A DNA stretch of 64,000 bases. It comes from Candidatus Omnitrophota bacterium. GTDB lineage: Bacteria > Omnitrophota > Gorgyraeia > Zapsychrales > Zapsychraceae. The position numbers were made by a program, and so were the translations under genes. Location: the NCBI GenBank assembly GCA_015233195.1, contig JADFYE010000007.1, forward strand, positions 8,684 through 72,683, read 5' to 3'. Below, in pieces: positions 1,361-61,638 of this stretch. Each line of letters begins with the position of its first letter. Position 1 is the stretch's first letter. The notes beneath the pieces are model-generated. The model searched no databases. It had not been told where the DNA came from and saw only the letters and a list, made by a program, of their open reading frames with translations.

Positions 1361-1529
1361 CTGGAAAGTCATTCATATGTTTAGAATTCATAAGAAATTA
1401 GTTATAGCATAAGTATTTGATTTTGGAAAGTAACCGTTTACTTCAAACCCTACTTTCCCCCTTATTTTAGGTAAATATATAATTTATACTTTATATGTAG
1501 TGTTGAATAGTTTTGAAGGGGGTAAAAAG

Positions 1530-4500
1530 ATGGGGCAAGTTTTTAAAAAATTCATATGTTGTTTAACACTAGTTATGTTTATATTTACTAGTGTTACTCC
1601 GTCTTATGGTCAAAGCGTGTTGAGCGTTCCTGCGCCAACTACTTTAGTTCAGCTTAGTCAGCCGTTTAATCCTCCAATGCTTACAGGTATCAAGGTTCAC
1701 ACAGACAACCCGTTTAGATTTGAGTTTATTTTGGACGCAGGAAATAATAATGATAAAAATAGCGTAGGGGCACGATACTTCGTGCCCGAATCAGCAGATA
1801 TAAAACAAGAAGCTAATCGCTTGATTAAATATTTCCTCGCCTCACTTACTGTCCCTGAAAAAGATTTATGGGTTAACTTATCGCCTTATGAAAAAGACCG
1901 CATTGTGCCGGAAGCGTTTGGTAAGACTGAAATGGGACGAGACCTTTTGGCACAGGATTATTTATTGAAACAACTTACAGCATCGCTTATGTATCCGGAA
2001 GGGGAGATTGGGCGAAAATTTTGGGATAGAATTTATGCAGAAGCTGCTCAAAAATTCGGTACTACTGATATACCAGTTGATACATTTAACAAAGTCTGGA
2101 TTGTGCCGGAAAAAGCAGTGGTGTATGAAAATGCTGAAGCTGGTACGGCATACGTTGTTGAGAGTCATTTGAAGGTGATGACGGAGAAAGATTATAAAGT
2201 CATTCCTTCGCGTACCGCTCAGGATGACAACACCAATAAAATTATAAAATCAGTCATTATTCCCGCGCTTGAACGCGAGGTTAACACCGGCAAGAATTTT
2301 GCCCAGCTTCGCCAAGTCTATAACTCACTCATCCTCGCTACTTGGTATAAAAAGAAAATTAAAGAAAGTATTCTCTCCCAGGTGTATGTAAACAAAAATA
2401 AAGTCGTAGGCGTAAATATAGACGATACCAAAGCCGCAGAAAAAATCTGGGCACAATACGTCGAGACTTTTAAAAAAGGCGCGTACAATTACATTAAAGA
2501 AGAATATGATCCGGTTAATCAAAAAATCATTCCTAAAAAATATTTTTCCGGCGGGTTTACAGCTTTGAATTTAGACGAGGCAATGATAATAGAATCAAAA
2601 GAAGTCCCGTATGATCCCGATGATCCCAATAATCACAACCAATTACAAAAAATAATTATGGATTTGCTTCCGCGCGATACGCCGCCGTTTACGCCTCTAG
2701 CAAGTGTTACTCCAGTGTCAATTAAATCTATACCGCCAATTCACGCACTGGAGCCGATTCCAGCAACCAATCCTTATGCAGGGGCGGTCGTGGTATCAAA
2801 CATAGAACAAGCAATTAAAAACGAAACACCAAATGTTGTTAATTTTACTCCTCAAGTCACGCCTAAAACAAAAAAAGATAAGTTAAATGAAAAATTAGAG
2901 GCATTGCTTGGGATATCCGCTAATGAAAAGCTTAGAAGTTTTATTAGTGACATGCTAAACGAATTATCTTGGGCGGATAATTTTGATTCATTTCTTATTT
3001 CGCAATCAAAATTATTAAGGAATTTACTTTTAGAGATTGGTTTTACATTTTTCGATTTACCTTTAACTCAAAGGCTTCTGGCGTTGGTGATTGAGTGGGC
3101 AATTAATTTAGGAGAAATTAATATTGATCAAATAAATTGGTTTGATGGTTTTTACACCACAAAACCAGTTTTTGCAATTGCAACTACAGCTTTGTCTGGT
3201 TTAGGTGACATAACCAAAATTGACATGGTCATACAAGGGATAAATCAGGAGCTCGAAAAATTGGGAATAAAAGGAGCTAAATTTAAAGTGTTAGCTTTAA
3301 TAAAAGATAAAAGCAGGATTGATATTTTTAAAGACAAACTTCTTGAGATGAAGTCTTTAAACGTTACCTTTGAATTTGTTGAGGATATTATACCTGAAAA
3401 CTCGCCGTTACTGGCTGATGTAGACGCGTTGATCGCGCTGGTTGAGCCGGTAACAACATTTGTAAAATTTGATGAACATCGCTCTCATGCCAGGTCTTCG
3501 CCACTTTTATGCTGGACAATAAATGAATATGATAAGGATATTAATCCTAATACTCGAGACACAGCGTTTAATTTCACAAATTTAAATACTGGATTTGATA
3601 GCCGTAGTATAGGTTTTTTTATTAATCCTTTCGCTGTAGGTTTGTATAACCAAAATTTAGGATTAAATGTAGAAGGTAGAATACAACAAAAAGAGGAACT
3701 TTTACGTCAATCTCTCAGTGAGATCGGGAATAAAATTAACGTACAGCCAATTAATGTAGAGGAGAAAGCCGCACAAGCGGCTGCGACAACTTGGGGATTT
3801 GTTTATATGCATAGGGACGGAGGGCAATATTTGAGGAATTTATTCCAGTATTTTTCAGAACAAAATATTACGGTATTTACTTTTTTTGGGGCTAACAATA
3901 GGTGGGAAAAAGATATAGATGAATTTGTAAAGTTTAAAGTCATAGTAGACGCCTATCGTTTACCAATTGAGATTTATGATTTAAGCGCAGATCCTAACCA
4001 AATTAAGACGATCGATTTTTCAAAACCAGTAATCCGGGTTATCAATTTAGGGGTACGAGATTTGACGACTAATATTCGTTTTATGGCTGCTTCTGATTTA
4101 CCAGTTGGAGTAACCGGAGATGAGAGCTTTGCCGCCGCAGCAACATTGAGGCTGCCATTTGTTTATGAAATGGCTCCTTGGAAATGGGAGTTAGCTTACA
4201 ACATTTCGCAATGGATGCGCCGTATTAATGGAGAACAAGGTAAGGCAAGTAAATTACTTTGGAATTTTATTATTAGGGAGACAGATAGCGCTGAACAGGA
4301 TTTTTTATGGGGCAACTCTCCTAAAAAATATGATGAATTTAAAAGGTTTGGAGATTTTGTGGAAAGCCGACCGCTTTATCCTGATTTGGTTCGGAAAATG
4401 TTAAGGACCTTAGCTTTTTTGCATTTAATGCAGGATAGACAAAACAAGGGTGTTCCTGCAAGTAAAAAAGCATTAGTCGGGGCTTATAATTTTTGGACAA

Positions 4501-7004
4501 AATGTCGGGATTTCTTAAGGCAGACCTTTCAAAGCGGGGATGAAAAATTAAAAAGCTATAAAGTTTATTTAGATTCAGAAAATGATCAGGCGATGCTGCA
4601 ACAAAATAGTGCTAAATTTCTTAGTGAAGCAGACCAGAAAATGTTGGGTGATTTTATTTTGAAGGCTAATGATGGGCGTAGATACAAGTTATTTTTTTAT
4701 AAAAAGCCGAGCAGTGAGGGAAGCTATAAAATTATTATTCGTGAAATTGATCAGAAAGATCAGGTGATTAGAGGACGAAGGAAAGCTGGATATATAGTGA
4801 TATTTCCATTTAATGAAAAAGGCTATAGAAACAGGAATGGTTTTTTTCAATTAATTATCGAAAGATTTGTTTTATTTCAAAAATCACAACAGGGAAAAAG
4901 AATTAGTAGTTCATTTTTGGAAAATTTGCCAAAAGGAACATCATTGCGAGGGAAAAATATCATCAATGAGGCTACGATAGATCAAATGAAAGATGAAGTT
5001 TTTGCTAAATTAAAAGCTACTGCTTCAGATGATGAACTTGTGCGCCTTGAAGAAAACGAACGTTATATTAATAGGGGAAGCGGGAGAGGTAGGGTTGAAA
5101 GTACAGTTCGTTTTTTTATGAATTATCAAGAGGATAAAAAGGTTGATCTTCATTTAAGTGAGATTTTCAGAAATACTCCAATAGGGAAATCATTGGGTTA
5201 TGGCGGTTTTGAAATATCGGATGTGGTAATTGGGGAACAATATATGGGTAGCTTCTATGTGGCTGAATTATCGTACATTGCTCTTAAACCAGTTGATCAG
5301 GCGATGAATCAACAAGAGATCATAATTAATGAAGAGCTTTCAGTAAAAACATCAGATGTTTTTAATGTGCGTTTAAAAGATAATCCTCAAGAAGGAATTC
5401 TGCAGCCGGCAACAGTTGATCGTCGGGAATTTTTAAAAACTGCTGTGGGACTTGCGGCTATTATGGCTTTGCCGGGCTTTTTAAGAGCGGCAGAACCTAA
5501 AAAGAATTTATTACCTGCCGGAAAAAGCGAACCAACCCTTGCTAAGGCGCGGCAGATTGTTTTAGATCATTTAACTGATATTCTTCACTCAGGTAAAATG
5601 TGGACCAATATTCCTTCAACAGAATATTGGCAGGATAATGTTTTTAAAGGCGATAAAACAATGTATTTGTTTGCAATGGACGATATTGAAATTGCGCTGA
5701 AAGCGGGGTTAAAGCCGTATAATGCAGGAGAAAGTTTGAATGCAAAAGAATTCGCCCGGTTAGCCATTCAGGCGATAAAGGAACAGACTGTTGAAGAAAA
5801 ATTAGATAAGTTTTTTTCAGGCAGTTGGTCGAGATATATGGTTGCCTTAGCGAATAACAGTGAAAATATAGAAATTTATGCGGAAGTTATCCGTCAAAGA
5901 GCTAAAGATATAGATCCGATTTTGGGCGCATTGGTTGCTCAATTGGCAGATAATACCAAGGATTGGCAGGTCAAAGATATAGAAAATGTATGGCAAAAAT
6001 TTAATGATTCATTTTTAATACCAAAAGGATATTATGCCAGCGTTTCATCAGCAACGAATAATCTTAAACATCACAAGTTTTATTTCGCGCTAATTTATAA
6101 GATTGAATCCCGGGAGCAGACAGCTTTATCTTCTGGAAGAAAAATCGAAGTGTTGATAGCGCGAAGGCTTGATATTGTTAATTTTGCGGGAAGCCTAGGG
6201 CATACGCAAAAAGGGTTTGACCGGATATTTATTGATTTAGATTCTATCGATTATCAGATAAAAACATTGGCAGGTTATTCTAGAAAAGATTTAGTATCTG
6301 ACGGTGAGAAAGTTTCAGAGAAAGATTTAATTAGTATTGAAAGCTGGGTAAGACAATTCAATAGCAGAGAGAATTTAAAACAATTAATTGTTGATGATAC
6401 CAAAATGCATGAATTGGCGCATAAGCAGTATGATGATCTGAAGAAAAATTTGACAAAAGGTTTTGGCATATATCAATCGAATTTTGATAATCTTCGTGCG
6501 CGAGATCCTCAAGGCACTGATATTATTCAATCTGAAATTTATGCATATCTGACTGAAATCAAGAATGGGAATTTGCCGGGCTTGTCAATTTTTATCCTAT
6601 GGCGAAGTTTTATGAAGCAAGTCCCGACAGCGGAATTTTTTGCCGGATGTTTTATTTTAAATCAATTAACAGGCGATGAGCTGAACCCTAAAAACGGAAT
6701 GCAGCATGTTTTTGAGAGGGTGGCTGAGCTTTTGAATATGCCTAAAATAGAAATTTCAAAAAAAGCAGAAAAAGTGTTACAAGAATTTTTCGCTGATAAG
6801 GCGATGAACATAAGCGATCACACCGGTGGTATTGATTTCACTGCTGATAAGACGCCTTTGGAAATTAAAAATATAGGTAAAGATATCAAATTCAATATAG
6901 ACGCTGCAATGCTGCAGAAACTCCAAAATACTACAGGGTTTGAGCCATTAATAATTGACATCCAGCCAATGACAGATCTAAAAGCTTTTTTGGAATTGAA
7001 ATAG
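1530..7004 (+). CDS. Giant exported modular protein, paralog 1 (~1824 aa), function unknown
   Basis: Long ORF (track 1500-7004). The ATG at 1530 follows gaagggggt (SD) and opens a signal peptide, MGQVFKKFICCLTLVMFIFTSVTPSYGQ. The N-terminal ~350 aa are shared with 21252-28415 and 61639->64000. Confidence 0.85.
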   Translation: MGQVFKKFICCLTLVMFIFTSVTPSYGQSVLSVPAPTTLVQLSQPFNPPMLTGIKVHTDNPFRFEFILDAGNNNDKNSVGARYFVPESADIKQEANRLIKYFLASLTVPEKDLWVNLSPYEKDRIVPEAFGKTEMGRDLLAQDYLLKQLTASLMYPEGEIGRKFWDRIYAEAAQKFGTTDIPVDTFNKVWIVPEKAVVYENAEAGTAYVVESHLKVMTEKDYKVIPSRTAQDDNTNKIIKSVIIPALEREVNTGKNFAQLRQVYNSLILATWYKKKIKESILSQVYVNKNKVVGVNIDDTKAAEKIWAQYVETFKKGAYNYIKEEYDPVNQKIIPKKYFSGGFTALNLDEAMIIESKEVPYDPDDPNNHNQLQKIIMDLLPRDTPPFTPLASVTPVSIKSIPPIHALEPIPATNPYAGAVVVSNIEQAIKNETPNVVNFTPQVTPKTKKDKLNEKLEALLGISANEKLRSFISDMLNELSWADNFDSFLISQSKLLRNLLLEIGFTFFDLPLTQRLLALVIEWAINLGEINIDQINWFDGFYTTKPVFAIATTALSGLGDITKIDMVIQGINQELEKLGIKGAKFKVLALIKDKSRIDIFKDKLLEMKSLNVTFEFVEDIIPENSPLLADVDALIALVEPVTTFVKFDEHRSHARSSPLLCWTINEYDKDINPNTRDTAFNFTNLNTGFDSRSIGFFINPFAVGLYNQNLGLNVEGRIQQKEELLRQSLSEIGNKINVQPINVEEKAAQAAATTWGFVYMHRDGGQYLRNLFQYFSEQNITVFTFFGANNRWEKDIDEFVKFKVIVDAYRLPIEIYDLSADPNQIKTIDFSKPVIRVINLGVRDLTTNIRFMAASDLPVGVTGDESFAAAATLRLPFVYEMAPWKWELAYNISQWMRRINGEQGKASKLLWNFIIRETDSAEQDFLWGNSPKKYDEFKRFGDFVESRPLYPDLVRKMLRTLAFLHLMQDRQNKGVPASKKALVGAYNFWTKCRDFLRQTFQSGDEKLKSYKVYLDSENDQAMLQQNSAKFLSEADQKMLGDFILKANDGRRYKLFFYKKPSSEGSYKIIIREIDQKDQVIRGRRKAGYIVIFPFNEKGYRNRNGFFQLIIERFVLFQKSQQGKRISSSFLENLPKGTSLRGKNIINEATIDQMKDEVFAKLKATASDDELVRLEENERYINRGSGRGRVESTVRFFMNYQEDKKVDLHLSEIFRNTPIGKSLGYGGFEISDVVIGEQYMGSFYVAELSYIALKPVDQAMNQQEIIINEELSVKTSDVFNVRLKDNPQEGILQPATVDRREFLKTAVGLAAIMALPGFLRAAEPKKNLLPAGKSEPTLAKARQIVLDHLTDILHSGKMWTNIPSTEYWQDNVFKGDKTMYLFAMDDIEIALKAGLKPYNAGESLNAKEFARLAIQAIKEQTVEEKLDKFFSGSWSRYMVALANNSENIEIYAEVIRQRAKDIDPILGALVAQLADNTKDWQVKDIENVWQKFNDSFLIPKGYYASVSSATNNLKHHKFYFALIYKIESREQTALSSGRKIEVLIARRLDIVNFAGSLGHTQKGFDRIFIDLDSIDYQIKTLAGYSRKDLVSDGEKVSEKDLISIESWVRQFNSRENLKQLIVDDTKMHELAHKQYDDLKKNLTKGFGIYQSNFDNLRARDPQGTDIIQSEIYAYLTEIKNGNLPGLSIFILWRSFMKQVPTAEFFAGCFILNQLTGDELNPKNGMQHVFERVAELLNMPKIEISKKAEKVLQEFFADKAMNISDHTGGIDFTADKTPLEIKNIGKDIKFNIDAAMLQKLQNTTGFEPLIIDIQPMTDLKAFLELK
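1764..1789 (+). repeat. GTAG-headed hairpin repeat, family A, inside the paralog 1 CDS (in frame, encodes VGARYFVPE)
   Basis: gtaggggcacgatacttcgtgcccga has stem GGGCACGA/TCGTGCCC. It matches the reverse complement of 61754-61779 at 25 of 26 nt. The paralogs lack ~10 aa at this position. Confidence 0.8.
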
Positions 7005-7061
7005 TTGGATCAGTTGGTTAATATGTTTGATATAATAAGAAAAATTGCAAAAAAGTAAGAC

Positions 7062-7646
7062 ATGAAAAATAAAAATATTTATATTATAGCTGGTCCGAAT
7101 GGGGCGGGAAAAACAACTTTCGCTGTAAAGTTTTTGCCTGATTATGTTAAATGCCCTAACTTCGTAAATGCGGATCTTATTGCTCAGGGGCTGGCTCCAT
7201 TTTCTCCTAATACAGCAGCTATTAAAGCGGGGAAATTGGTTCTTAATCAGATTGATAATTTTGCTGCGCAAGGCGTGGACTTTGCTTTTGAGACAACACT
7301 TTCTGGTAAAACTTATTTGCGCTTGTTTAAAGCGTTGAAAGCAAAAGGATATAAATTGCATCTATTTTTTTTATGGATACCGGATAAGCGGCTGGCTTTG
7401 GCAAGGATTAAAGATAGAGTTCAAGCGGGAGGACATAATATTCCTCCTAATGATGCCCGGCGAAGATTCGTACGCAGTATTTATAATTTTTCTGTGGTTT
7501 ATCGTTTTGTGTTTGATTTTTGGATGTTATTTGATAATTCAGGTACTACGCCTAGACTAATTGCTCGAGAAAAGGATTGCGAACTTTATATTGCTGATAA
7601 AAAGTTATTTGGTATAATTGTTCGTATTAAGGAGATAATTGAATGA
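7062..7646 (+). CDS. Zeta-toxin-like P-loop kinase / AAA ATPase (COG4185-type)
   Basis: Walker A motif in IIAGPNGAGKTTF. The overall pattern ...FVNADLIA...FAFETTLSG...GYKLHLFFLWIPDKRLALARIKDRVQAGGHNIP is typical of the zeta-toxin family. Confidence 0.7.
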   Translation: MKNKNIYIIAGPNGAGKTTFAVKFLPDYVKCPNFVNADLIAQGLAPFSPNTAAIKAGKLVLNQIDNFAAQGVDFAFETTLSGKTYLRLFKALKAKGYKLHLFFLWIPDKRLALARIKDRVQAGGHNIPPNDARRRFVRSIYNFSVVYRFVFDFWMLFDNSGTTPRLIAREKDCELYIADKKLFGIIVRIKEIIE

Positions 7647-7810
7647 AAAAACCTGCGACTCTTCAAGCAAAAGCGATGTGCGCGCTTCGAAAAGCGATAC
7701 GCGGAGTAGTATTACAGCATCAAAAAACTGGTCGTCCGCTTATGATTTGGCGTAATGGAAAAGTTGTCCGCGTGTCAGCTGATGATGTTTTGTTAAATAG
7801 CAGCAAGTAA
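7643..7810 (+). CDS. Small ORF (55 aa) translationally coupled to the zeta-like gene; candidate partner/antitoxin
   Basis: Its ATG overlaps the upstream stop (ATGA at 7643-7646). Translation is MKKPATLQAKAMCALRKAIRGVVLQHQKTGRPLMIWRNGKVVRVSADDVLLNSSK. It falls below the ORF-track size cutoff. I recognise no family. Confidence 0.4.
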   Translation: MKKPATLQAKAMCALRKAIRGVVLQHQKTGRPLMIWRNGKVVRVSADDVLLNSSK

Positions 7811-8931: not shown

Positions 8932-10563
8932 ATGCTTAATATCTTATATAAGTATCATATGAAAAGGATATGGGCTTTTTTAAATTCCGGGAAGGGAATA
9001 GGTTGTTTATTTTTTGTGGTCGTGGCAGGGCTTTATTATAAATCGTTTGCTTTTGATTTGACCTATTTTGACGACCAGGTATGGGTGTTGGACTATCAAT
9101 GGTTTTTTGCTAAATGGTCCAATGCTTTAAAGTTTTTTACCGGAGCAGATTTTATATCTGGATGTTTTTACCGTCCGCTTTTAAACCTTACTTTTTTGAT
9201 CGACAGTCAAGTCGGTCATTTTCATTTATGGGCATATCGTTTAACAAATATAATCATTCATGTTAGCGGGGTATGGCTGGTATATAAATTTTTCGAACAT
9301 TTTTTGAAAGATAAAAAACCGGCTTTGATATTAGCTTTGGTTTTTGCGGTTCACCCGACCTTGACTATGGCTGTGGCTTGGCTACCTGGACGGACAGATT
9401 CGCTATTGGGTGTTTTTATTCTTGCTGCGTTTTTGTGTTTTGCCTATTACATAGATAATCCTAAAAAACGGTTTTGGTTAGGTCATGTTTTTTTTATGTT
9501 GTGCGCTTTTTTGACTAAAGAAACAGCGTTGGTTCTGCCTGTGATCTGTTTACTGTATTTATGGATGGTTAAAAAAGAATGGGGAGTTAAAAAGGGTTGG
9601 AGTTTTTGGTTGTTGTGGTTGATAGTTCTACCGGCTTTTCTGATATTACGCAAGTCTATAATGGCTCAGCAGATCACAATTGTTCCTCTGGGCACCTTAA
9701 TCTCGTCATTTTTTGAAAATCTGCCAGCAGTTGTTTTATATTTGGGCAAGACTTTATTGCCTATAAATTTATCGGTCTTACCGATATTGAGGGATGTTAC
9801 TCATTGGTACGGCGTAGTAGTCGCAGCGTTTCTTACGATATTATTTATTTTTACGTCTGAAAAAGATTGGCTTAAAATATCTTTCGGGTTTGTTTGGTTT
9901 TTATTATTTTTGTTACCGTCTTTGGTGATGAGTTTTATAGAGCATGAATACCGTTTGTATTTGCCGCTGCTCGGTATATTGCTGGTGCTTGCCCAGACGG
10001 ATCTTTTCCGTGCCAGCATGAAAAATAAATATGTTTGGGTGTGGGTTTTGATAATAGCTAGCTTAGGTTTAAAAACTTTTTATCACCAGGATAATTTAAA
10101 AAACCGGTTGATTTTTTGGAAAAGCGCGGTTAATGTTGCTCCGCACTCGCCGTTAGCGCACCGTAATTTGGCGGCTATGTATTGTTTGGTAAAAGATTTT
10201 GATAGGGCAGAGCCGGAATTTAAAGAGGCAGCCAGGCTTAATTATAAAGAGCCGATGGTGCATAATAATCTCGGTCTGATTTATATGAATCGGGGTAAAA
10301 ATATAGAAGCAGAGAAAGAGTATTTGTTGGAAATAAAATACAATCAGACTTACGGTAATGTTTATTATAATTATGGGCTTTTGAAATATATGGAAAAACA
10401 ATATCCCGAGGGGGCAAAGCTTTTTGAGCAGGCAATTTTTTATGATCCTAAGCATATGGACGCTGTAAAGATGTTGTTGCAGTATTATCGGTACATAAAA
10501 GATGAGGGTCAAATTAAGCGCATAGAGGATTATTTACGATCAAATGGGGTAAGCGGATTTTAA
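8932..10563 (+). CDS. Polytopic membrane protein with C-terminal TPR repeats (PMT/ArnT-like glycosyltransferase architecture)
   Basis: The first ~400 aa contain about 10 hydrophobic segments. TPR-like repeats follow (LAHRNLAAMYCLVKDFDRAEPEFKEAARLNYKEP, HNNLGLIYMNRGKNIEAEKEY...). An alternative start is at 8959. Confidence 0.5.
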   Translation: MLNILYKYHMKRIWAFLNSGKGIGCLFFVVVAGLYYKSFAFDLTYFDDQVWVLDYQWFFAKWSNALKFFTGADFISGCFYRPLLNLTFLIDSQVGHFHLWAYRLTNIIIHVSGVWLVYKFFEHFLKDKKPALILALVFAVHPTLTMAVAWLPGRTDSLLGVFILAAFLCFAYYIDNPKKRFWLGHVFFMLCAFLTKETALVLPVICLLYLWMVKKEWGVKKGWSFWLLWLIVLPAFLILRKSIMAQQITIVPLGTLISSFFENLPAVVLYLGKTLLPINLSVLPILRDVTHWYGVVVAAFLTILFIFTSEKDWLKISFGFVWFLLFLLPSLVMSFIEHEYRLYLPLLGILLVLAQTDLFRASMKNKYVWVWVLIIASLGLKTFYHQDNLKNRLIFWKSAVNVAPHSPLAHRNLAAMYCLVKDFDRAEPEFKEAARLNYKEPMVHNNLGLIYMNRGKNIEAEKEYLLEIKYNQTYGNVYYNYGLLKYMEKQYPEGAKLFEQAIFYDPKHMDAVKMLLQYYRYIKDEGQIKRIEDYLRSNGVSGF

Positions 10564-21033: not shown

Positions 21034-21251
21034 TTTTTTCCACTTATTTCTCCCCCCATTTTCTTCATTTTTTCATTTCTCGTCGGTAATATATAATATA
21101 TAATATTTTAGGTAAACGGTTTCTCTGTAACCCCTTGCAGCCCTTGTTTTTTGGAAGTTTTGTGGCATATTTGGGGTAGATTTATAAAGGAGGGGCAAGT
21201 CCCTTTATAACGGAAAAGATATATTTGATAAATTATTTAAAGGAGAACGTT

Positions 21252-24200
21252 ATGTTCCGATCTATTTATTTTAAGTCTTGCGCGATTACAGTGTTGATCG
21301 CGTTTCTTATGACAACCGTGTTTCAGACGACAGGCTTTGCCCAAGTGGCAATGTATATGCCTGCGGTTGGCACACAAGTAATGCCCTCAGCATTTTATGA
21401 ACCAGCTAGTGCAGTGGGTATGCAGGTTGATCCTGTAAATCCGTTTCACTTCAATTTCTTCATTGACCGCGGTCAAGACCCGTTAGCCGGTGAAATTGAA
21501 AAGACTGAATATAAAAAATTAGTTAAATATTTTTTAGCCGCATTGACCATCCCTGATAAAAACCAATGGGTCAACCTTTCGCCTTATGAACATAACCGTA
21601 TAGTGCCAACTGATTTCGGTGATACTGAAATGGGTCGCGATCTTTTAGCCCAAGATTATCTTTTAAAACAGTTAACTTCTTCACTTATGTATCCTGAAAA
21701 AGAAATCGGCAAGGTATTTTGGGATAAAATTTACGAAAAAGTCTACGCTAAATACGGACAGAATGCAGAAGTGCCGGTTAATACTTTTAATAAAGTTTGG
21801 ATTACTCCGGATAAAGCGGTTGTGTATGAAGACGGTGATAAAGTTTGGATTATGGAAAGCCATTTGAAGATTATGTTAGAGCAGGATTATATGGCTTTAG
21901 ATAAAAATAAAGACAATTCCCGTTTTGGTTTATCAGCTAATAACAATACTAATTTAAGTGAAACCAGCACTGCCTCGTCTCAAATTGTGCGCGAGATCAT
22001 TGTACCTGCGATTGAAAAGGAAGTTAATACAGGGAAAAATTTTGCTTTATTGCGTCAAGTTTATAAGTCTATGATTCTTTCTGCTTGGTTTAAGAAAAGA
22101 CTTAAAGATCATTTATTATCTCAAGTATATAAAGATAAAGATAAAGTTATAGGCGTGAATTTAGATGATAAACAAGCTAATGAAAAGATTTATCAGCAAT
22201 ATATAGAGTCTTTTAAGACTGGTGTGTTTGACTATATTAAGGAAGAGTACGACCCTGCAAGTCAGACAGTTATTCCTCGTAAATATTTCGCGGGTGGGGG
22301 CGATTTTGCTATGTTAACTACGGATATAGTGAATGTTGTAACTCCGCGATCAGCAACTCCTGCGCAAAGAGCAACATTCGCAGAAGCAGTTAAAGGACTT
22401 GATGGTCGTATAGATATATTAAGTGCTTTGTTTACGGAAAATGATCGGGAGGCTATTGCTGCTACTGCTAAATACAAAAAAGCTCTTGAGACAGTACAGG
22501 CAGTATTGCCTCCTGAAGTGATAGCACATTTAAAGCAGTCGATTATAGATCAGTTAGCAGCAGAGGATGTAAATTTTTCAGAACGCCAAAATGCCATTGA
22601 AGCTGCATTGGTTTTAGCTGTAGCACAGTGGATAGATTTAAATAATAGCTTACACCGTAAAGATGTTGTAGTTATGGATAAGAACGGTAAATTAGCAGTG
22701 GTATCGACTGAGGTGTTATTTAAAAATACACCAGCAGAAATTAATATTGATGAATTAACTAGTTTGGTAATGGGCGGTATCAGATTTTACGCGCATTACG
22801 GTGATGCCGGACTAGCATTAGCTAATAATATAAATTTTGTGTCTGCTATCCAAGCTATGAATCGGGTAGAAGAAAGAGTTATAAGATTAGAAAAAGAGAC
22901 TGATTTGAGTAAATCCGAGGTCTTAATAAGTCAGTTGGAAGATCATTACGACTTGTTTAGGAAGTATTCGGATTTGGTTGTAAAAAATCAGGAACAAGTT
23001 GAAAATGCTTTTGCTGGAAATAAGCAAGTTATTTATCAGTCTGTAACAATAAGGCAGATGTTTAGGAGTTTTGAAAATAATAAATATGATTTAGGCAGAC
23101 GTTCGGGAAAATTATTTCAAAGAATTGATGCTTATAAAAGAACTGCTAAATCAACGTCTAGAACTTCAACAGCTTCGTCTACTACTGGAACTGATGAACG
23201 TACTGCTGAACAAAAAGCTATGGACGCTTGGACGGTAGCTATCTCGCCGATCTTAGATTCTAAAGAGACGGTAACTCCTGAAAAATTAAATCAATTGGCA
23301 GCTCAGATTGCAGATATGGTTTGGGCGCAATTAACACCAGATCAGCAAACTCAATTACCACGACCAGAATTAGAAGGTAAATTAGCAGCTGCTTTAGGAC
23401 AAGTTTTAGATGAATACCAAGCAAAACCAGAGCAGAAGGCTGAAGTAACTGATCTGAAAGTTTTAATACAAAAACTTATTAGTATTTTATTCCCGCAAAA
23501 AGAGTCTGAACCTGCAACTAAACCAGCGGTAAAGGTAGTTGATCTAATAAAGAAGTTGAGTGGATTCGCTAAAGCTGGAAATATGGATGAAAGTGACGTT
23601 CAGTTATTTTTAGGTTTGTTGGATCAGGAAACGTTTATCAGCCTATTCAATAAATATCAGGCGTCTGCAATATATGATGCAATAAAATTTGTAATGAAAA
23701 ATTTGCCTCAAGTGCCAGATGAGGAATTAGTTAAAGCTATTGTTGCAGCAATTAAAACAAAAATAGAACCTGCAGGTAAATCAGAAGAAGAATTAGCTGC
23801 AGAAAAAGCTGCAGAGCAAGCCGCCGCCGCAGCTCAAGCAGTTAAACCAAAGTTAGGAATATGGGGAAAACTAAAAGCTGCAGTAAGAAATGGATATGCG
23901 AATTGGGCAGCAGGAAGACAAGCTAAAGCCGAATTAAGAATGCAAGTTAAAGCCGCAACAGTTACCTGGAAAGAAGTTGCTAGAACCTACCACTTAGATT
24001 ATAAATTTGAATCAGGAACAGCTGGAGATAAATGGGTAGACCAGTTAATGGTTCTTTCTGAAATTCAAAAAAGTGGAGTATCTCGAACAGATCTGTTGGA
24101 AGTTGTAAAAATTACGCTGAATGACGAGTTTATGAAGAACAGGAATAATCTTGAAGGGTCATTCTTATATATTTATAACGAAATTTTGCTAAACATAAAA

Positions 24201-27200
24201 TATTCTATATTACGTGAAAAGGTGTTTTTACAATATTCTGAAGTAATTAATGATTCAGCAGAAAATAAGGTTGAAGCTGTAGCGGATAATATTATTGAAA
24301 CTTTTAAATCTATAGGGTCTAGTCTAGAAATTAATAAACAAATATTAATCGATAACATTAAAGCTAATATTGCTGAACAACAAAATACGATTAAATCAAT
24401 TCCTGAAAATCAGTATGATGCTGTCTATAATCAAGGGTTTGCGGAGTTGGTACGACCGTTGATAGAAGCAGACGCTGCTATGGTTGTAGAAGCAGACGAA
24501 ATGACTGATCTGTTGGTTGCACTTGAACAAAGAGGGATTGTAGCTGATGAGAAAACAATCGCGGAAATTGTTGCAAATATGCCAGAAGTTGATGAACAGC
24601 TAAAAGATTATATTGGTACTGATATTTTGGCTGGTTGGACTATTATTGCTTTAATAAATGGACAAAAAGAAAGTCCGAAACCCGCTGTAACTCCTAAGCC
24701 AGCAGAGGTAGCACCTTCAGCTCGTAGTTTAGTAGAAGGCAGGATAAACAAATTAGTTGGTCAAGAGAGGGTAGATGTATTTTTTGGTTATTTGAGTCAG
24801 CAACCAACGTATAATCTCATATCAGACCACAATTATTCGGAAAATGAAATAAAAGAAGTGATACAAGCGTTACTTACAGCAGGAAAAGAAGTGACCGTGG
24901 TTGGTGTTGTAATGCAACTTATAAGAAACCGACAAGCGCTTATACCAGAGCAATTTAAAGCATTTGTTAATGGTATAGAACAATTAATACCAAACCAATA
25001 TGTAAATCGTAGTGCTTTATTAAATGATTTTTTTGATACTAAAATAAGTCCTCAAAATAAGGAAATGTTAGATCAGCTTTGGGCGGCTTTTGCTGCAGAA
25101 CCTGAAGGACAACAAATGGGTCTTACTCCTGAGGAGGCTAAGGATGCGGTAATAAAAATATTGCTTGATCCTACTAAAACAAAAGATTTTGAAGAAATGT
25201 TAATTAATTTTAATAAATTTCATAGCGAGGTTTTTGCTGCTGCAAAAGCAGAGAGAGCTAAATTACCTCAGAAGTCAGAAAAGTTAAATCAACTTATTGA
25301 TAATTTTTTAGCTCAAACCAAGAGCGTAAAAGATTTTATAAAAGACAATCAGACTTTATGGAATGATTTTATAAACGAGCTTAAAAATTATTATCAGGGA
25401 TCACCGGTGCTGGATATAAAAACGGCTTCTGATGTTGTAGAATACATTTTGGATATGGATTCTGCACCAGCGAGGTTTAAGGAGGATTTTCCAGCGTTTT
25501 TTGAAGCGTTTTTAAAACAATTAAAAGAGGGTGTTCCTGCTGTAAAAGCGGCACGTACACCAGAAGAAGTTTTTACTCAAGGAATGGAAGATTTATTAAT
25601 AGCTGTTCAAGCGGTAGAAAAAGATAGACCAGGAAACGGAGTAATAGTTATAACAGCTTCTAGAGTGAAGAACTTTTTACCGTACTATATGTTAACTGAT
25701 GATAATGTGTCAACTGCAGTGGTTGCTTTAAGGAAGTTCTTTACGGCAAATAAAGCTAAAGCTAAAGCTGACGAGCTGGAAAAGATAAAAGATTTAAAGT
25801 TTTTTAGTTTATTGGGAAAATTTGATAAATCAGAAGTTGATGTACAAAAACAAAATACTGTAAATGTGGTTATAAACGCAATAATATCGAGAATGGAAGT
25901 AATTGATATAGTTGCCCAAAAGGAAAAGTGGGAAACTAAAGATATAATAAGTGAAAGATTGCGTTCAAAAGATCAAGTATTGTCAAAGTCTGCTGGAGTA
26001 GAATTAATAAACCAGATAATGACCTATATTCAAGAAAAAGGTATGCAGCTTACAGAGCAAGAGGTGATTGATGCAATAAAAAGTATTTTTACTTCTGCAG
26101 AAACTACAGAAATGGAAGGCTTTAAGACTAATTATTTAGAATTTTATAAATTAGTGGCTCAACAAGCTATGAAAGACGCGGCCATGATTGTTGTTCCAGA
26201 AAATGTCACAGAGATTATAAGTCTTCTTCGTCAATTATGGGATGGTACAAATATTAATCCTTCCGACCAAGACATTAAGGATGTTTTGGAAAGTATGACA
26301 ATGCCTGCTGGTCTAACGCAGGATAATGATGTTATTGTTGGTATGCTGGCGAATATGTTTTTACAAGCTCAGGAAGCAGGAAATCAACCTGCTGGACAGC
26401 CATCATTATCAAATGATTTAGATGGTTTACAACGCTCTGTAAATGCAAATTCTAAGACTTGGAAAGAAAGAATGGCGCAAGTTGGGCGGTGGGCATTAGG
26501 AGCTACAGGGTTAGGAATGGTTGTGGCAGCGGTTTTAGGTGCAATTGGGTTTTTTAAAAACGTACAACCAGTTGCTCCGGAGGCTGAGAAGCCAGCGGCA
26601 GAGCGCACATTTGATGTTAGTAGATCAAATGCATTAAAAGGTGCAATAAAAGATGGATTGACAGGAAATAACGCAAAAAAAGCAGTTCTTGATTCTTTGA
26701 AAGATAGATATGCAGAATCAGGCACAGCATTTCAGCCGGCAAAGGTAGATGCTAAGGCTCAAGGAATCGCAGATGCTCAATTTGATATTTTACATGCTCG
26801 CAATAGCGATCCAATGTTAGGCAAAAGCTATACTGATGTAGATGGAAAAAAACATGAAGGGCGTAATGCATTCAAAACATTTTTGAGAGACGCTAAGGCG
26901 TCGGGATTTTTTGCTAATATAACGGAAGCTTTTTGGGATGGTATTAATGGGTTAAATGAGGATCAACAGAAAGAATTTTTAGCTGAAATGGCAGCTATTC
27001 AAGGTCAGGTAAAAGAATTATCAGACGGCTTGATAAAAACTTTTGGCGCAGAGCTCGCAGCTTTGCAAGCAGAAGGTCCAAATAAAGAAAATCAGCAGAG
27101 GATACAGGGTCTGAAAGATAGTATCGCTTCATTAAAAGAAAAAAATGATGAAAGTCCAGATGCGATTGTTGGCAAATCTTCAGAGTATTGGCTTACATTA

Positions 27201-28415
27201 AATCGCTTAAAAGAACTTGCAGAGATTTCTAATAAAATGGGAGTTGTAGCAAATATCACTACAGAAGCTTTAGTTCAAGCTGAAGACGCTGGAACAACAA
27301 AAAGTAGTCCTGGTAAAGCAGTGATTTTTTCAAGAGTTTTTGAGGAGGGAACCACCAGCCCTGCAAAAACAGCCGCGGGTAACGCTACAATAGTATATGA
27401 CACACAAGTTCAAGTGGCTAACAATGGTGCGCCGTCTGCATATAAGTATGTTGCAGGGGCAGGTCAAAGATTAAAGGGAGTATTTAATTCCGTAACAGGC
27501 GCAACTTATTCTTTATTGGATAAAGGCGGGAAGGTTGTTACAGGCATGGGCAAAGGATTAAAAACTCTTGCAGGGGTAAAACAAACTACAGCTGGACCAG
27601 TTACTCCAGAAGTCAGTGCTAGGTTGAATGCTTCTTCTAAGTGGATGAAAGCACTTTTAGCTCAAGCAAGGATTGATATTAATGAAAATAATTTTGCTAA
27701 TGTGGCTTTAGCTGATGCAGTACGGGACAGACCCGAACCTGTAAATGTAGGTAGAACAAATCCTTACGGTATAACGGATGCTGATGTTACCAGATTATTA
27801 ATGGCAGTAGGTTATATGCCGGATCAAGGATTGACTCTCGATGATATGGAAGCTATTGTGCATAATGGCAGTGATGAAGATGCAAGATCTCTTTATGAAA
27901 TTGTTTTTGGTGCGCATGTGGTTTTAGCGGGTAATAGCCTTAAGGTTGTTGAGTCTTTTGGAGAGCAGGGAGCAGTTACATTTGAAACACCTGATATAGT
28001 TGCTGTAGGTAGAGGACTAGTTTTTAGAGAAATTTCTAACCCTGGAAAGTCAAAGAAAGAAATACAGAAAAGAGTTGGTGCGATAACGCCAGCCCAGGTG
28101 AGAGACGCTTTATTGGAGGCTATAAAGGAAGAAAGGGCAAAGCGACCAGCAGATAGAGCTATGTTTATCTTTGGTGAGGAAATTAGTTTTTATCCGCAAG
28201 ATGATCCAGTCGGTGGTATCGACATGGATTCAGCAATGTTGAACTTGCAGATTAAACGCGATCCTAATGGCGTACCATTGCCAATGAATTTCCAGGATCC
28301 GGCAATGATGCAGAATTTAAAAGGTTTGATGCCGGTTATTATGGATATAACTAATATGCCGTCGAGTATGCTGCCGAATTTATCAGCAGCAGGTACAGCG
28401 CCGAATCAGGCATAA
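21252..28415 (+). CDS. Giant exported modular protein, paralog 2 (~2387 aa), function unknown
   Basis: The ATG at 21252 follows aaaggag. The signal peptide is MFRSIYFKSCAITVLIAFLMTTVFQTTGFAQ. It shares the N-module with paralogs 1 and 3 and the C-terminal tail with paralog 1. Confidence 0.85.
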   Translation: MFRSIYFKSCAITVLIAFLMTTVFQTTGFAQVAMYMPAVGTQVMPSAFYEPASAVGMQVDPVNPFHFNFFIDRGQDPLAGEIEKTEYKKLVKYFLAALTIPDKNQWVNLSPYEHNRIVPTDFGDTEMGRDLLAQDYLLKQLTSSLMYPEKEIGKVFWDKIYEKVYAKYGQNAEVPVNTFNKVWITPDKAVVYEDGDKVWIMESHLKIMLEQDYMALDKNKDNSRFGLSANNNTNLSETSTASSQIVREIIVPAIEKEVNTGKNFALLRQVYKSMILSAWFKKRLKDHLLSQVYKDKDKVIGVNLDDKQANEKIYQQYIESFKTGVFDYIKEEYDPASQTVIPRKYFAGGGDFAMLTTDIVNVVTPRSATPAQRATFAEAVKGLDGRIDILSALFTENDREAIAATAKYKKALETVQAVLPPEVIAHLKQSIIDQLAAEDVNFSERQNAIEAALVLAVAQWIDLNNSLHRKDVVVMDKNGKLAVVSTEVLFKNTPAEINIDELTSLVMGGIRFYAHYGDAGLALANNINFVSAIQAMNRVEERVIRLEKETDLSKSEVLISQLEDHYDLFRKYSDLVVKNQEQVENAFAGNKQVIYQSVTIRQMFRSFENNKYDLGRRSGKLFQRIDAYKRTAKSTSRTSTASSTTGTDERTAEQKAMDAWTVAISPILDSKETVTPEKLNQLAAQIADMVWAQLTPDQQTQLPRPELEGKLAAALGQVLDEYQAKPEQKAEVTDLKVLIQKLISILFPQKESEPATKPAVKVVDLIKKLSGFAKAGNMDESDVQLFLGLLDQETFISLFNKYQASAIYDAIKFVMKNLPQVPDEELVKAIVAAIKTKIEPAGKSEEELAAEKAAEQAAAAAQAVKPKLGIWGKLKAAVRNGYANWAAGRQAKAELRMQVKAATVTWKEVARTYHLDYKFESGTAGDKWVDQLMVLSEIQKSGVSRTDLLEVVKITLNDEFMKNRNNLEGSFLYIYNEILLNIKYSILREKVFLQYSEVINDSAENKVEAVADNIIETFKSIGSSLEINKQILIDNIKANIAEQQNTIKSIPENQYDAVYNQGFAELVRPLIEADAAMVVEADEMTDLLVALEQRGIVADEKTIAEIVANMPEVDEQLKDYIGTDILAGWTIIALINGQKESPKPAVTPKPAEVAPSARSLVEGRINKLVGQERVDVFFGYLSQQPTYNLISDHNYSENEIKEVIQALLTAGKEVTVVGVVMQLIRNRQALIPEQFKAFVNGIEQLIPNQYVNRSALLNDFFDTKISPQNKEMLDQLWAAFAAEPEGQQMGLTPEEAKDAVIKILLDPTKTKDFEEMLINFNKFHSEVFAAAKAERAKLPQKSEKLNQLIDNFLAQTKSVKDFIKDNQTLWNDFINELKNYYQGSPVLDIKTASDVVEYILDMDSAPARFKEDFPAFFEAFLKQLKEGVPAVKAARTPEEVFTQGMEDLLIAVQAVEKDRPGNGVIVITASRVKNFLPYYMLTDDNVSTAVVALRKFFTANKAKAKADELEKIKDLKFFSLLGKFDKSEVDVQKQNTVNVVINAIISRMEVIDIVAQKEKWETKDIISERLRSKDQVLSKSAGVELINQIMTYIQEKGMQLTEQEVIDAIKSIFTSAETTEMEGFKTNYLEFYKLVAQQAMKDAAMIVVPENVTEIISLLRQLWDGTNINPSDQDIKDVLESMTMPAGLTQDNDVIVGMLANMFLQAQEAGNQPAGQPSLSNDLDGLQRSVNANSKTWKERMAQVGRWALGATGLGMVVAAVLGAIGFFKNVQPVAPEAEKPAAERTFDVSRSNALKGAIKDGLTGNNAKKAVLDSLKDRYAESGTAFQPAKVDAKAQGIADAQFDILHARNSDPMLGKSYTDVDGKKHEGRNAFKTFLRDAKASGFFANITEAFWDGINGLNEDQQKEFLAEMAAIQGQVKELSDGLIKTFGAELAALQAEGPNKENQQRIQGLKDSIASLKEKNDESPDAIVGKSSEYWLTLNRLKELAEISNKMGVVANITTEALVQAEDAGTTKSSPGKAVIFSRVFEEGTTSPAKTAAGNATIVYDTQVQVANNGAPSAYKYVAGAGQRLKGVFNSVTGATYSLLDKGGKVVTGMGKGLKTLAGVKQTTAGPVTPEVSARLNASSKWMKALLAQARIDINENNFANVALADAVRDRPEPVNVGRTNPYGITDADVTRLLMAVGYMPDQGLTLDDMEAIVHNGSDEDARSLYEIVFGAHVVLAGNSLKVVESFGEQGAVTFETPDIVAVGRGLVFREISNPGKSKKEIQKRVGAITPAQVRDALLEAIKEERAKRPADRAMFIFGEEISFYPQDDPVGGIDMDSAMLNLQIKRDPNGVPLPMNFQDPAMMQNLKGLMPVIMDITNMPSSMLPNLSAAGTAPNQA

Positions 28416-28510: not shown

Positions 28511-28538
28511 TTGACAATATAACCTTTTATGTTATATT
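28511..28538 (+). promoter_or_regulatory. Promoter with embedded inverted repeat (candidate HigA operator)
   Basis: TTGACA-16 nt-TATATT. The inverted repeat TATAAC-N7-GTTATA (28518-28536) spans the spacer and -10. Confidence 0.45.
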
Positions 28539-28552
28539 TAAATCAGCGATAT

Positions 28553-28852: not shown

Positions 28853-28861
28853 GAGAAAAAT

Positions 28862-61543: not shown

Positions 61544-61638
61544 AATCATTTCGTTTTGCTTTTCCCTCTTGTTACATGGCATACTTTCCTTACTAACTCT
61601 AAATATTAATAATACTAATTAATCTTAAATTTCAAGTT

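Follow-up and report, generated by a model that had tools for sequence, protein, structure and literature searches.

A conserved C-terminal tail coupled to an N-terminal domain in a large family of modular Omnitrophota proteins: a candidate recognition tag

Two long genes in the 64-kb stretch of DNA that we analyzed (the window) encode proteins that end in a common tail module of ~60-70 aa. The family to which this tail belongs is very large, specific to Omnitrophota and so far undescribed; its members are modular proteins predicted to be exported. It occupies a strictly terminal position and is conserved at the protein level on unrelated cargo; it is coupled to a conserved N-terminal domain (N-domain) and diverges together with it, is spread in multiple copies within a restricted lineage, and lies outside the tag families that we tested. 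These properties make the tail a good candidate for a new tag that serves in trafficking or recognition. The reading that we favor, with a probability of about 0.45, is that of a two-part frame in which the tail would act as a recognition element together with the N-domain.

Ultra-small size and host-dependent or predatory traits have been reported for Omnitrophota (PMC10066038). The phylum is uncultivated, and work on its action on other cells has so far centred on giant genes. The family, which numbers at least 5,800 clusters and is present several times per genome, may be the main exported or effector repertoire of the phylum. Neither searches for its motif strings nor the preprints on giant genes in Omnitrophota and the survey in Nature Microbiology gave an account of it; this literature search covered only a minority of subscription papers.

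A tail shared by two paralogs and by thousands of other proteins

The features of the window are collected in Table 1. By BLASTP, paralogs 1 and 2 have just two regions in common: the first ~350 aa, which are 50% identical (E 4e-104), and the tail, where identity is 33% over 73 aligned columns (E 0.015; ~30-36% across comparisons). Taken alone, the tail match is marginal. The tail consists of D-x-A-M, 5-15 aa, GGID(L/F) and then F-x-(D/N)-P-A-M-L-x-x-L-Q-N-A-P-G-F-x-P-V-I-I-x-I-x-P, followed by F-L-G and a short variable end. The initial annotation had placed both tails exactly at the base level: the Asp codon of D-K-A-M begins at position 6795 and the stop codon ends at 7004 (ORF 1500..7004), while 28152 corresponds to the Asp of D-R-A-M (ORF 21225..28415). 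The end peptides that it quoted have the right letters, but the true ends lie further on, with KAFLELK before the stop in paralog 1 and SMLPNLSAAGTAPNQA before the stop in paralog 2.

Table 1. Features of the family genes in the window
Feature	Position	Strand	Content or basis
Paralog 1 gene, MBF0483793.1 (HQL25_03695), 1824 aa	1530..7004	+	Signal peptide, N-domain, three D-x-A-M-delimited cargo modules, tail
Paralog 1 Sec-type signal peptide, MGQVFKKFICCLTLVMFIFTSVTPSYG/QS	1530..1610	+	Read from sequence by inspection
Paralog 1 conserved N-domain, ends ...KKYFSGG	1611..2573	+	Homologs; AF2 model of homolog P0003
Paralog 1 D-E-A-M boundary, directly past N-domain	2574..2585	+	D-x-A-M enrichment and clustering (aa 359)
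Paralog 1 internal D-Q-A-M boundary	4584..4595	+	Motif scan
Paralog 1 internal D-Q-A-M boundary	5295..5306	+	42 aa upstream of an internal Tat-like signal
Paralog 1 C-terminal tail	6795..7004	+	D-K-A-M ... GGIDF ... DAAMLQKLQNTTGFEPLIIDIQPMTDLKAFLELK, plus stop; independent family profile
Paralog 2 gene, MBF0483809.1 (HQL25_03785), 2387 aa	21252..28415	+	Frame as in paralog 1, cargo unrelated
Paralog 2 Sec-type signal peptide, MFRSIYFKSCAITVLIAFLMTTVFQTTGFA/QV	21252..21341	+	Read from sequence by inspection
Paralog 2 conserved N-domain	21342..22301	+	50% identical to paralog 1; local N-domain HMM, 502 bits
Paralog 2 D-F-A-M boundary, directly past N-domain	22302..22313	+	Motif scan (aa 360)
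Paralog 2 internal D-A-A-M boundary	24471..24482	+	Motif scan
Paralog 2 internal D-A-A-M boundary	26175..26186	+	Motif scan
Paralog 2 C-terminal tail, divergent copy	28152..28415	+	D-R-A-M ... GGIDM ... QDPAMMQNLKGLMPVIMDITNM, 16 variable aa, stop; profile, BLASTP
Third paralog, signal peptide and N-domain	start about 61603-61639, to 64000	+	Local N-domain HMM

Given a pairwise E value of just 0.015, one could argue that two unrelated C-termini resemble each other by chance or low complexity. We searched the six-frame translation of the window with an independent tail profile, made from 140+ tails of other proteins and leaving out the window's own sequences. The profile gave 90.8 bits (E 9e-28) for paralog 1 and 29.8 bits (E 8e-9) for paralog 2, with no third match better than E 0.15. 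The likeness of both tails is not due to chance, an explanation that these scores and the thousands of homologous tails refute and whose probability is negligible. The tail of paralog 1 is 50-60% identical to canonical tails, and that of paralog 2 is a divergent copy of the family tail. A six-frame scan for GG[IVL]D[FLMIV] matched both tails and a single other site, on the minus strand at ~2737, which sits among stop codons and outside any ORF.

A profile of the two tails, when run in a word-indexed search, returned one fragment only (P0001), and an exhaustive search of representatives was then needed. This search, counted in clusters at 50% identity, detected the tail in 5,817 protein clusters at E<=1e-3 and in 2,294 at E<=1e-10. 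The tail that had been proposed from two proteins is thus real and, far from being absent elsewhere, recurs in thousands of family members. Its suspected C-terminal bias turned out to be strict: among the best 150 of the 5,817 matches, a sample skewed to canonical tails like the pattern-based one, 150/150 end at most 26 aa from the C-terminus (median 6). At the DNA level, the tail ends at most 19 codons from the stop in 82/82 independent genome loci, and in 73 of them the reading frame upstream stays open for 300 aa or more. The tail is carried by MAGs of Candidatus Omnitrophota, in which a genome has at least 5-7 copies; the window is itself part of an Omnitrophica MAG and holds three family members within 64 kb. 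A phage origin of the tail was rejected, as we did not find it in IMG/VR contigs.

The constant frame and its variable cargo

Complete members are built of a Sec signal peptide, an N-domain of ~320 aa, cargo delimited by D-x-A-M and the tail. Sec-type signal peptides with n, h and c regions and an AQA/Q-type site were recognized by eye in all the complete members inspected (paralogs 1 and 2 and 10 relatives). The N-domain, which ends in (R/K)KYF(S/A)GG across the family, has 1,325 homologs at E<=1e-3 in Omnitrophica MAGs (best identity 62%) and no sequence match in Pfam, NCBIfam or PDB. With our local N-domain HMM, paralog 1 reached 556 bits, and both paralogs have the signal peptide with the N-domain, D-x-A-M at both junctions and the terminal tail match. 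Searches of the whole of both proteins against Pfam and NCBIfam gave nothing beyond a sub-threshold internal TAT_signal. The window also contains a third paralog, missed in the initial annotation (398 bits, E 4e-121), which runs past the window edge and has its tail outside.

In complete members the tail always comes with the N-domain, and the two co-diverge. The N-domain is present in 39 of the 62 tail proteins of at least 400 aa, and 29 genome ORF segments contain N-domain and tail both within the flank. Short proteins with only the tail, or N-domain proteins devoid of it, were rejected as exceptions: one apparent case (L082), examined at the DNA level, is a single gene cut by two frameshifts, and another locus (L002) is fragmented likewise in an assembly rich in frameshifts. 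In locus L001, an ORF of 147 aa that has a canonical tail (P0207) follows directly on a complete family gene, and this one does look separate. N-domain and tail distances are tightly correlated (Pearson 0.91, Spearman 0.80, Mantel p ~5e-4), a correlation that could reflect shared descent of the frame instead of joint function. The coupling and the co-divergence had both been overlooked in the initial annotation.

D-x-A-M is 25-fold enriched (341 observed vs 13.7 expected). It clusters 0-60 aa past the N-domain and is found at module junctions, including 5-20 aa ahead of GGID (aa 1766 in paralog 1 and aa 2310 in paralog 2); one further copy inside the tail reads D-P-A-M in 86% of cases. The motif lacks an extended context, and its position 4 tolerates Q, L and V. 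Although it had been described as an element of the tail, and is indeed present in both tails, it is a general module-boundary motif and not specific to them. We rejected internal translation starts at D-x-A-M, since no Shine-Dalgarno-like sequence lies upstream and its codons vary synonymously.

As the initial annotation stated, the tail sits on otherwise unrelated regions: 524 of 528 cargo pairs show no BLASTP similarity, and only 4/528 show any. In the same comparison, N-domains were up to ~84% identical (distance 0.16-0.18) and tails ~65-84%. Regarding the nature of the cargo, it comprises in 69 relatives mostly enzymes using ATP, GTP or acetyl-CoA, together with repeat scaffolds (Pkinase, ABC1, PP2C, GGDEF, HATPase_c, GNAT, HAD, PPDK_N and HEAT domains), while the cargo regions of paralogs 1 and 2 gave nothing usable against PDB sequences. 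Such cytoplasm-type enzymes are as expected for proteins acting inside a cell, and could equally mean proteins that are membrane-anchored in the producer.

Possible roles of the tail

The proposal that the tail is a sorting or secretion tag stands in its descriptive part (thousands of carriers, terminal position, unrelated cargo); the function itself we infer, as HMM matches, folds and adjacent genes gave no indication of it. The inferred role is that of a sorting or secretion signal with a dedicated partner and cleavage at D-x-A-M. The signal peptide would take the protein across the inner membrane, and the tail, poorly structured alone, would then be the recognition element for one shared partner, which may be an envelope translocon, an anchoring factor or a delivery factor. 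If tail and N-domain were recognized together, any cargo between both ends would be handled alike. The D-x-A-M linkers would be module junctions and the best candidates for processing sites.

The AF2 model of P0003, a homolog that represents a minimal member, is confident over residues ~40-325, with an alpha/beta N-domain containing long helices, and gives the tail a pLDDT of 35-56. Foldseek found no match to this model at E<=1e-3 in the PDB (the top matches, NheA/MakA of the ClyA toxin type, were not significant, with E 0.035 and TM 0.12-0.15) and nothing in BFVD. Modeled alone with 85 sequences, the tail reached a mean pLDDT of 61 and a pTM of 0.25, a confidence too low for a fold search; no strands were called, only short helices, the first of them within the ~11 cargo residues upstream of DKAM. 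When the tail profile was compared with PDB sequences, the sole match was a chance one to DnaK (E 0.89). No stable fold is predicted for the tail, which fits a signal that would fold on binding. As for candidate partners, the window neighbors of the family genes are housekeeping, toxin-antitoxin and TPR/PMT_2 genes. Neither in the window nor in 78 related loci does a dedicated secretion or processing gene lie next to tail genes; the first downstream genes of these loci have nothing in common except another paralog in 6 of them.

The same observations could be read in other ways. Instead of being sorted by a translocon, paralogs might assemble head-to-tail or on a surface structure, in a cohesin-dockerin-like manner, if the tail were a docking module whose binding adds a strand to another member's N-domain or to a shared scaffold. 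This is unlikely, even though both partners are present in every complete member and diverge in tight correlation, and the tail, predicted to be unstructured alone, alternates strand-prone and helix-prone segments. In the AF2 model of P0003, the tail is not docked against the N-domain of its own chain. A weak likeness to the dimerization domain COMM (PF07258), known as a eukaryotic family and likewise a C-terminal element of ~65 aa, was detected in 16/42 tails; it covers ~27 aa at 13-16 bits, below the gathering cut-off of 22.4, is absent from the tails of paralogs 1 and 2, and no COMMD chain appeared in the PDB profile search, so that we rejected the assignment and would treat the resemblance as a lead only. 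A weak match of the tail to Aconitase_2_N was also rejected as sub-threshold. Alternatively, the tail with its D-x-A-M/D-P-A-M might be a removable propeptide or self-processing element, cut at D-x-A-M, that would keep the cargo inactive or export-competent. The enrichment of the motif exactly at module junctions, and modules past it that can resemble native precursor N-termini (as in P0259, "DRAM-NTRRNFIR..."), agree with this possibility; we consider it rather improbable, given that the motif has so little sequence context and that the frame showed neither a protease nor an autoprocessing domain (Pfam/NCBIfam on both paralogs, domain scan of relatives). It would be compatible with a sorting tag and does not exclude it.

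One could also argue that the constant ends operate at the DNA level, as handles for the exchange of cargo cassettes, the tail peptide itself being without function. Such exchange would leave hypervariable cargo in a constant frame, and both the separate tail ORF in L001 and a protein with a duplicated 28 aa tail start (P0169) could be taken as its traces. However, conservation of the tail is at the protein level, since the D-x-A-M codons vary synonymously and the longest exact DNA match between the window paralogs, whose tails are themselves so divergent in protein, is just 13-17 bp; moreover, the protein sequences of canonical tails from different MAGs are still ~65-85% identical, which argues for selection on the peptide and makes a recombination handle very improbable. 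Returning to the two-part recognition frame, we can also envisage it with its D-x-A-M modules as the substrates of an undescribed system by which host-dependent Omnitrophota would deliver effectors. Whole cytoplasm-type enzymes would have been captured in-frame, some keeping the junction Met or even their own Tat signal peptide, and after export through recognition of the constant ends they would be released by cleavage at D-x-A/M as separate polypeptides, perhaps on or within a host or prey cell. We regard this extension as doubtful.

Comparison with known systems

The initial annotation claimed no membership of a known family, and in agreement with this no known sorting-signal HMM matched 42 tails (NCBIfam and Pfam, E<=10). 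The T9SS cargo of Bacteroidota resembles the family in its N-terminal Sec signal peptide, unrelated cargo, conserved extreme C-terminus and many paralogs per genome. T9SS CTDs are at once sorting signals and removable processing elements, but they form autonomous Ig-like beta-sandwiches of ~70-100 aa, a structure that AF2 does not confidently predict for the Omnitrophota tail, and T9SS cargo has neither the ~320 aa N-domain nor the D-x-A-M linkers. CTD models (TIGR04183/PF18962/type B) matched none of the 42 tails nor the whole of paralogs 1 and 2, and no T9SS machinery (PorU/PorV/SprA etc.) was found among the annotated ORFs of the 64-kb window. Omnitrophota are not among the lineages known to have T9SS.

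Sortase, exosortase, rhombosortase and archaeosortase tags (LPXTG, PEP-CTERM, GlyGly-CTERM, PGF-CTERM) were rejected as well, with no match to NCBIfam sorting models at E<=10. Their layout of motif, TM helix and basic cluster was not found in 148 tails: the Kyte-Doolittle 19-residue maximum is at least 1.6 in just two of them, the longest hydrophobic run has a median of 5 and a maximum of 8, the last 8 residues hold a mean of 0.65 K/R, and past FLG there are 1-29 variable polar residues. The Sec-type signal peptides set the family apart from T1SS substrates, exported in one step without a signal peptide, and the single GGID per protein from RTX proteins, with their tandem GGxGxDxUx nonapeptide arrays.

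Like the family, XVIPCD-type T4SS effectors and Dot/Icm substrates are described as combining a characteristic C-terminal element with diverse enzymatic domains. These substrates are recognized in the cytoplasm and are not known to carry a Sec signal peptide, whereas all the complete Omnitrophota members inspected have one. In these systems one coupling factor reads diverse effectors (background in PMC11253643).

Polymorphic toxins, whose architecture has been reviewed (PMC3482391), share further traits with the family: TpsA/CdiA and Rhs proteins have a signal peptide, an N-terminal domain of a few hundred residues and extreme variability elsewhere, and both groups place a very short motif at the junction between constant and variable parts, here D-x-A-M. 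A TPS domain was rejected for our N-domain, as Pfam gave no match on paralogs 1 and 2 and the AF2 model is alpha/beta with long helices and not a beta-helix. TpsA/CdiA proteins have a TPS domain and a VENN junction, and Rhs proteins a PxxxxDPxGL junction. Downstream of the family genes, the 78 loci contain no conserved immunity-like gene, and the genes there form no family besides further paralogs. Polymorphic toxins vary at the C-terminus, whereas the Omnitrophota family keeps this end constant and varies the middle, with cargo of mostly signaling or metabolic enzyme folds and not classic toxins. The N-domain and tail profiles and the D-x-A-M junction motif are now available for mining MAGs, and the frame offers a route to co-varying machinery and a means of searching existing proteomes again for sites of processing. 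Should the tail prove to be a genuine sorting signal, it would stand for a new pathway of secretion or attachment, distinct from the known CTD and sortase-type systems.

The C-terminal tail and its carriers

The two long proteins par1 and par2 are HQL25_03695 and HQL25_03785, NCBI 'hypothetical proteins' from a Candidatus Omnitrophica MAG (88.5 kb contig). By pairwise BLASTP they share just two regions: the N-terminal ~350 aa (50% identity, E 4e-104) and the C-terminal tail, whose similarity is marginal taken alone (33% identity across 73 columns, E 0.015). Searching with the N-terminal region gave 1,325 homologs at E<=1e-3, nearly all of them encoded in Omnitrophica/Omnitrophota MAGs, and several (P0003, P0010, P0015, P0095 and P0104) end with the same tail. 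We then used a seven-tail profile in an exhaustive search of 1.84 billion representative proteins, obtaining 5,817 matches at E<=1e-3, of which 2,294 reached E<=1e-10. When the profile was rebuilt without any window sequence and run against the six-frame translation of the window, it recovered par1 with 90.8 bits (E 9e-28), par2 with 29.8 bits (E 8e-9), and nothing else. Hence, given this family context of homologs and profile scores, the tail similarity is real, and a chance resemblance is excluded. The initial annotation had noticed a common tail in both paralogs and proposed scanning for further carriers: the independent profile confirms the former, and the thousands of matches show that the tail is not absent from other family members. 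The peptides quoted there were correct in their letters, while the true ends lie further on, by KAFLELK in par1 and by SMLPNLSAAGTAPNQA in par2.

The canonical tail reads D-x-A-M, 5-15 aa, GGIDLTPANMNLQTQNxGxxIKFHLDPAMLQQLQNAPGFVPVIINIQPMTDLRxFLGL and then 1-29 variable polar residues, par1 having a fairly typical copy and par2 a divergent one. Among the best 150 of the 5,817 profile matches, the tail ended at most 26 residues from the C-terminus in every case (median 6), with no canonical tail at an internal position; internal matches were few, partial and very weak (1-17 bits). An independent DNA-level sample from GTDB species genomes (142 confirmed matches, 80 kept) gave the same picture: a stop codon followed at most 19 codons past the tail in 82/82 cases, and in 73 of these the frame stayed open for 300 aa or more upstream. 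The supposed C-terminal bias therefore stands, as opposed to a random internal occurrence. The family is multi-copy and confined to Omnitrophota, barring a few differently labelled genomes: almost all tail-bearing genome matches are titled Candidatus Omnitrophota, the others being some 'uncultured Planctomycetales' (binchicken MAGs) and one Alphaproteobacteria. Up to 7 tail loci were found per MAG, though this search demanded an exact 8-9 residue pattern, and no tail was found in IMG/VR viral contigs.

Constant ends and variable cargo

Complete members have a fixed order: a Sec-type signal peptide with an AQA/Q-like site (judged by eye), an N-domain of ~320 aa ending in ...(R/K)KYF(S/A)GG, a cargo of 0 to >2,100 aa, and the tail. 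The minimal member, the database homolog P0003 (438 aa), consists of signal peptide, N-domain, a linker of ~30 aa and tail. Database proteins with only one of these ends are often fragments, many of them because family genes are split by frameshifts, as at the related locus L082 (5992-8964), where N-domain, middle and tail ORFs lie in three successive frames and form one gene with two frameshifts (a pseudogene, a sequencing error or a programmed shift). The assembly of locus L002 is likewise rich in frameshifts. Unlike these fragments, P0207 is a separate ORF of 147 aa with a canonical tail (L001 7998-8441), following at a distance of ~200 bp a complete family gene (3810-7793) whose own tail is divergent; P0207 resembles a displaced or orphan cassette. 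In P0169 (1108 aa, a metagenome fragment), an identical 28 aa stretch, LPLVDHAMGTKIQKILNSNKGGIDLTPA, is present at the fragment start and in the terminal tail, reflecting either an insertion or duplication inside the tail or an assembly artefact.

Regarding the cargo, BLASTP similarity was detected in only 4 of the 528 pairs formed by 33 proteins with both ends, so that the initial description of the tail as sitting on unrelated C-terminal regions holds. In many pairs with dissimilar cargo, identity is up to ~84% between the N-domains (distance 0.16-0.18) and ~65-84% between the tails. The distances of the N-domains correlate strongly with those of the tails (Pearson 0.91, Spearman 0.80, Mantel p ~5e-4). 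Therefore, both ends travel and diverge jointly while the middle gets replaced. The tail is thus a peptide module that occurs strictly at the C-terminus, shows strong protein-level conservation on unrelated cargo, and is obligatorily paired and co-diverging with the N-domain behind the signal peptide. Pfam domains in the cargo of 69 relatives comprise HEAT repeats, PPDK_N, HAD hydrolases, ABC1 and Ser/Thr kinases, PP2C, GGDEF, HATPase_c, receiver domain, GNAT, DndE, SLOG and GT2, folds that normally act in the cytoplasm with nucleotide cofactors. For par1 and par2, the cargo gave no sequence match in Pfam, NCBIfam or PDB. Window 5415-5492 (par1 ORF aa 1306-1331) encodes a textbook twin-arginine signal, VDRREFLKTAVGLAAIMALPGFLRAA/EP, 42 aa past a D-Q-A-M junction and deep in a protein that already bears an N-terminal Sec signal; it scored 15.1 bits against Pfam TAT_signal, under the cut-off. 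Similar internal signals, with Met placed as in a native precursor, occur in P0259 (DRAM-NTRRNFIR...), P0250 (MTRRKFITGL...), P0007 (MKRVVSRRKFLK...) and P0258 (MATVSSRRTLLG...). Their sequences suggest that modules may be captured whole genes, or may be released as separate polypeptides.

D-x-A-M is strongly enriched in 145 kaa of family sequence (341 observed vs 13.7 expected), with scrambled versions at the expected rate. Its four clusters lie 0-60 aa after the N-domain, 5-20 aa before GGID (median spacing 12), once within the tail (as D-P-A-M) and internally in long members. It had been listed as an element of the tail, and it does precede GGID, but it is not specific to it. Position 4 also tolerates Q, L and V, [DN]x[AS][MQLVI] being present upstream in 118 of 144 tails, and no extended sequence context was detected around the motif. 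The motif shows synonymous codon variation and lacks a Shine-Dalgarno-like sequence upstream; from this and from its positions, we regard it as marking junctions at the protein level within polar linkers, and the sequences make it the best candidate for a processing site.

Genomic context

The window represents ordinary chromosomal sequence (purine biosynthesis, LeuRS, MurJ, LptE, a BamD-like lipoprotein, UvrC and a PilT/T2SSE-like ATPase), with at least three family members scattered among its housekeeping genes, the third being seen by its signal peptide and N-domain as the gene leaves the window.

Family features and flanking genes in the window
Feature	Position	Strand	Remark
par1 ORF	1500..7004	+	very long; database version from Met 1530
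par1 D-x-A-M	aa 359, 1029, 1266, 1766		
par1 tail	6795-7004	+	D-K-A-M Asp codon through stop codon
Zeta_toxin/AAA_33-like kinase	7062-7646		after par1
AAA_14/DUF4143 ATPase	19828-21033		before par2
par2 ORF	21225..28415	+	very long; database version from Met 21252
par2 D-x-A-M	aa 360, 1083, 1651, 2310		
par2 tail	28152-28415	+	D-R-A-M Asp codon through stop
HigB-like toxin + HTH antitoxin	28529-29179		after par2
Third paralog	61603-64000, start ~61639	+	signal peptide + N-domain, 398 bits vs local HMM; exceeds right end

The genes flanking the paralogs are of types typical of variable regions, and an AAA_14/DUF4143 gene also adjoins the L082 member. Shortly downstream of family genes, a PMT_2 glycosyltransferase-like membrane protein with TPR repeats is encoded both in the window (8932-10563) and in an unrelated MAG (L001 8647-10407), which may be local synteny. 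The sole secretion-related gene in the window, the T2SSE/PilT-like ATPase (43982-45058, +), stands alone among housekeeping genes and adjoins no paralog. Across 78 related loci, the gene next downstream was another paralog in 6 and otherwise belonged to no common family; neither these loci nor the window have a co-located dedicated secretion or processing gene.

Possible roles and comparison with known systems

We tentatively favor, with a probability of about 0.45, that the tail serves for recognition or sorting: it would be read by one common partner and act jointly with the N-domain, and the modules would be separated at D-x-A-M. This is close to the sorting or secretion tag first proposed, of which the conserved C-terminal module on unrelated cargo stands; the function itself is deduced, no machinery is co-located, and no Pfam or NCBIfam sorting-signal model matched any of 42 tails at E<=10. 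The tail could instead be a docking or assembly element binding the N-domain or a scaffold, which we consider unlikely. In the AF2 model of P0003 the N-domain, with two beta-hairpins and long helices, is confident (residues ~40-325 mostly at pLDDT 85-97), and the tail has pLDDT 35-56 and is undocked from it. Somewhat less likely still is a removable pro-region or processing element, a role compatible with sorting. A purely DNA-level recombination handle is very improbable, since the window paralogs share at most 13-17 bp of identity and the D-x-A-M codons show synonymous variation.

COMM_domain was the sole recurrent match to the tails (13-16 bits vs a cut-off of 22.4, ~27 residues) and was absent for those of the window, and no COMMD protein appeared in the PDB profile search. 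The P0003 N-domain model (homolog of window 1611-2573) had no significant structural neighbour in Foldseek; the best matches to P0003, the ClyA-family pore-forming toxins NheA and MakA, were not significant (E 0.035, TM 0.12-0.15).

The family, which matters for its size and regularity and for the biology of the phylum, is not described in the searched literature, including an Omnitrophota survey (PMC10066038) and two giant-gene preprints (10.1101/2023.11.21.568195, 10.64898/2026.06.07.730766). The giant proteins of these preprints have overlapping cargo domains (PPDK_N, HEAT_2, HATPase_c, GGDEF and HAD_2), so the modules of this family may also make up the Omnitrophota giants.

As for known systems, the tail has neither a transmembrane-length hydrophobic stretch nor a terminal basic cluster, which rules out a sortase, exosortase or rhombosortase-type tag. 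Unlike T1SS/RTX substrates, family members bear signal peptides and only one GGID. Modelled alone (AF2, 85 sequences; mean pLDDT 61, pTM 0.25), the tail does not look like a T9SS-type beta-sandwich. Save for the signal peptide, the family has none of the testable defining features of T9SS, polymorphic toxin or TpsA/CdiA proteins, and it belongs to none of these classes. The reading as a conserved terminal trafficking-type tag on polymorphic, putatively exported proteins is partly supported. T9SS cargo (signal peptide, cargo, CTD) is the family's nearest counterpart in logic. There is also a resemblance to polymorphic toxin and TpsA/CdiA proteins, which consist of a trafficking domain conserved at the N-terminus, a junction marked by a short motif and a remainder that varies (PMC3482391).
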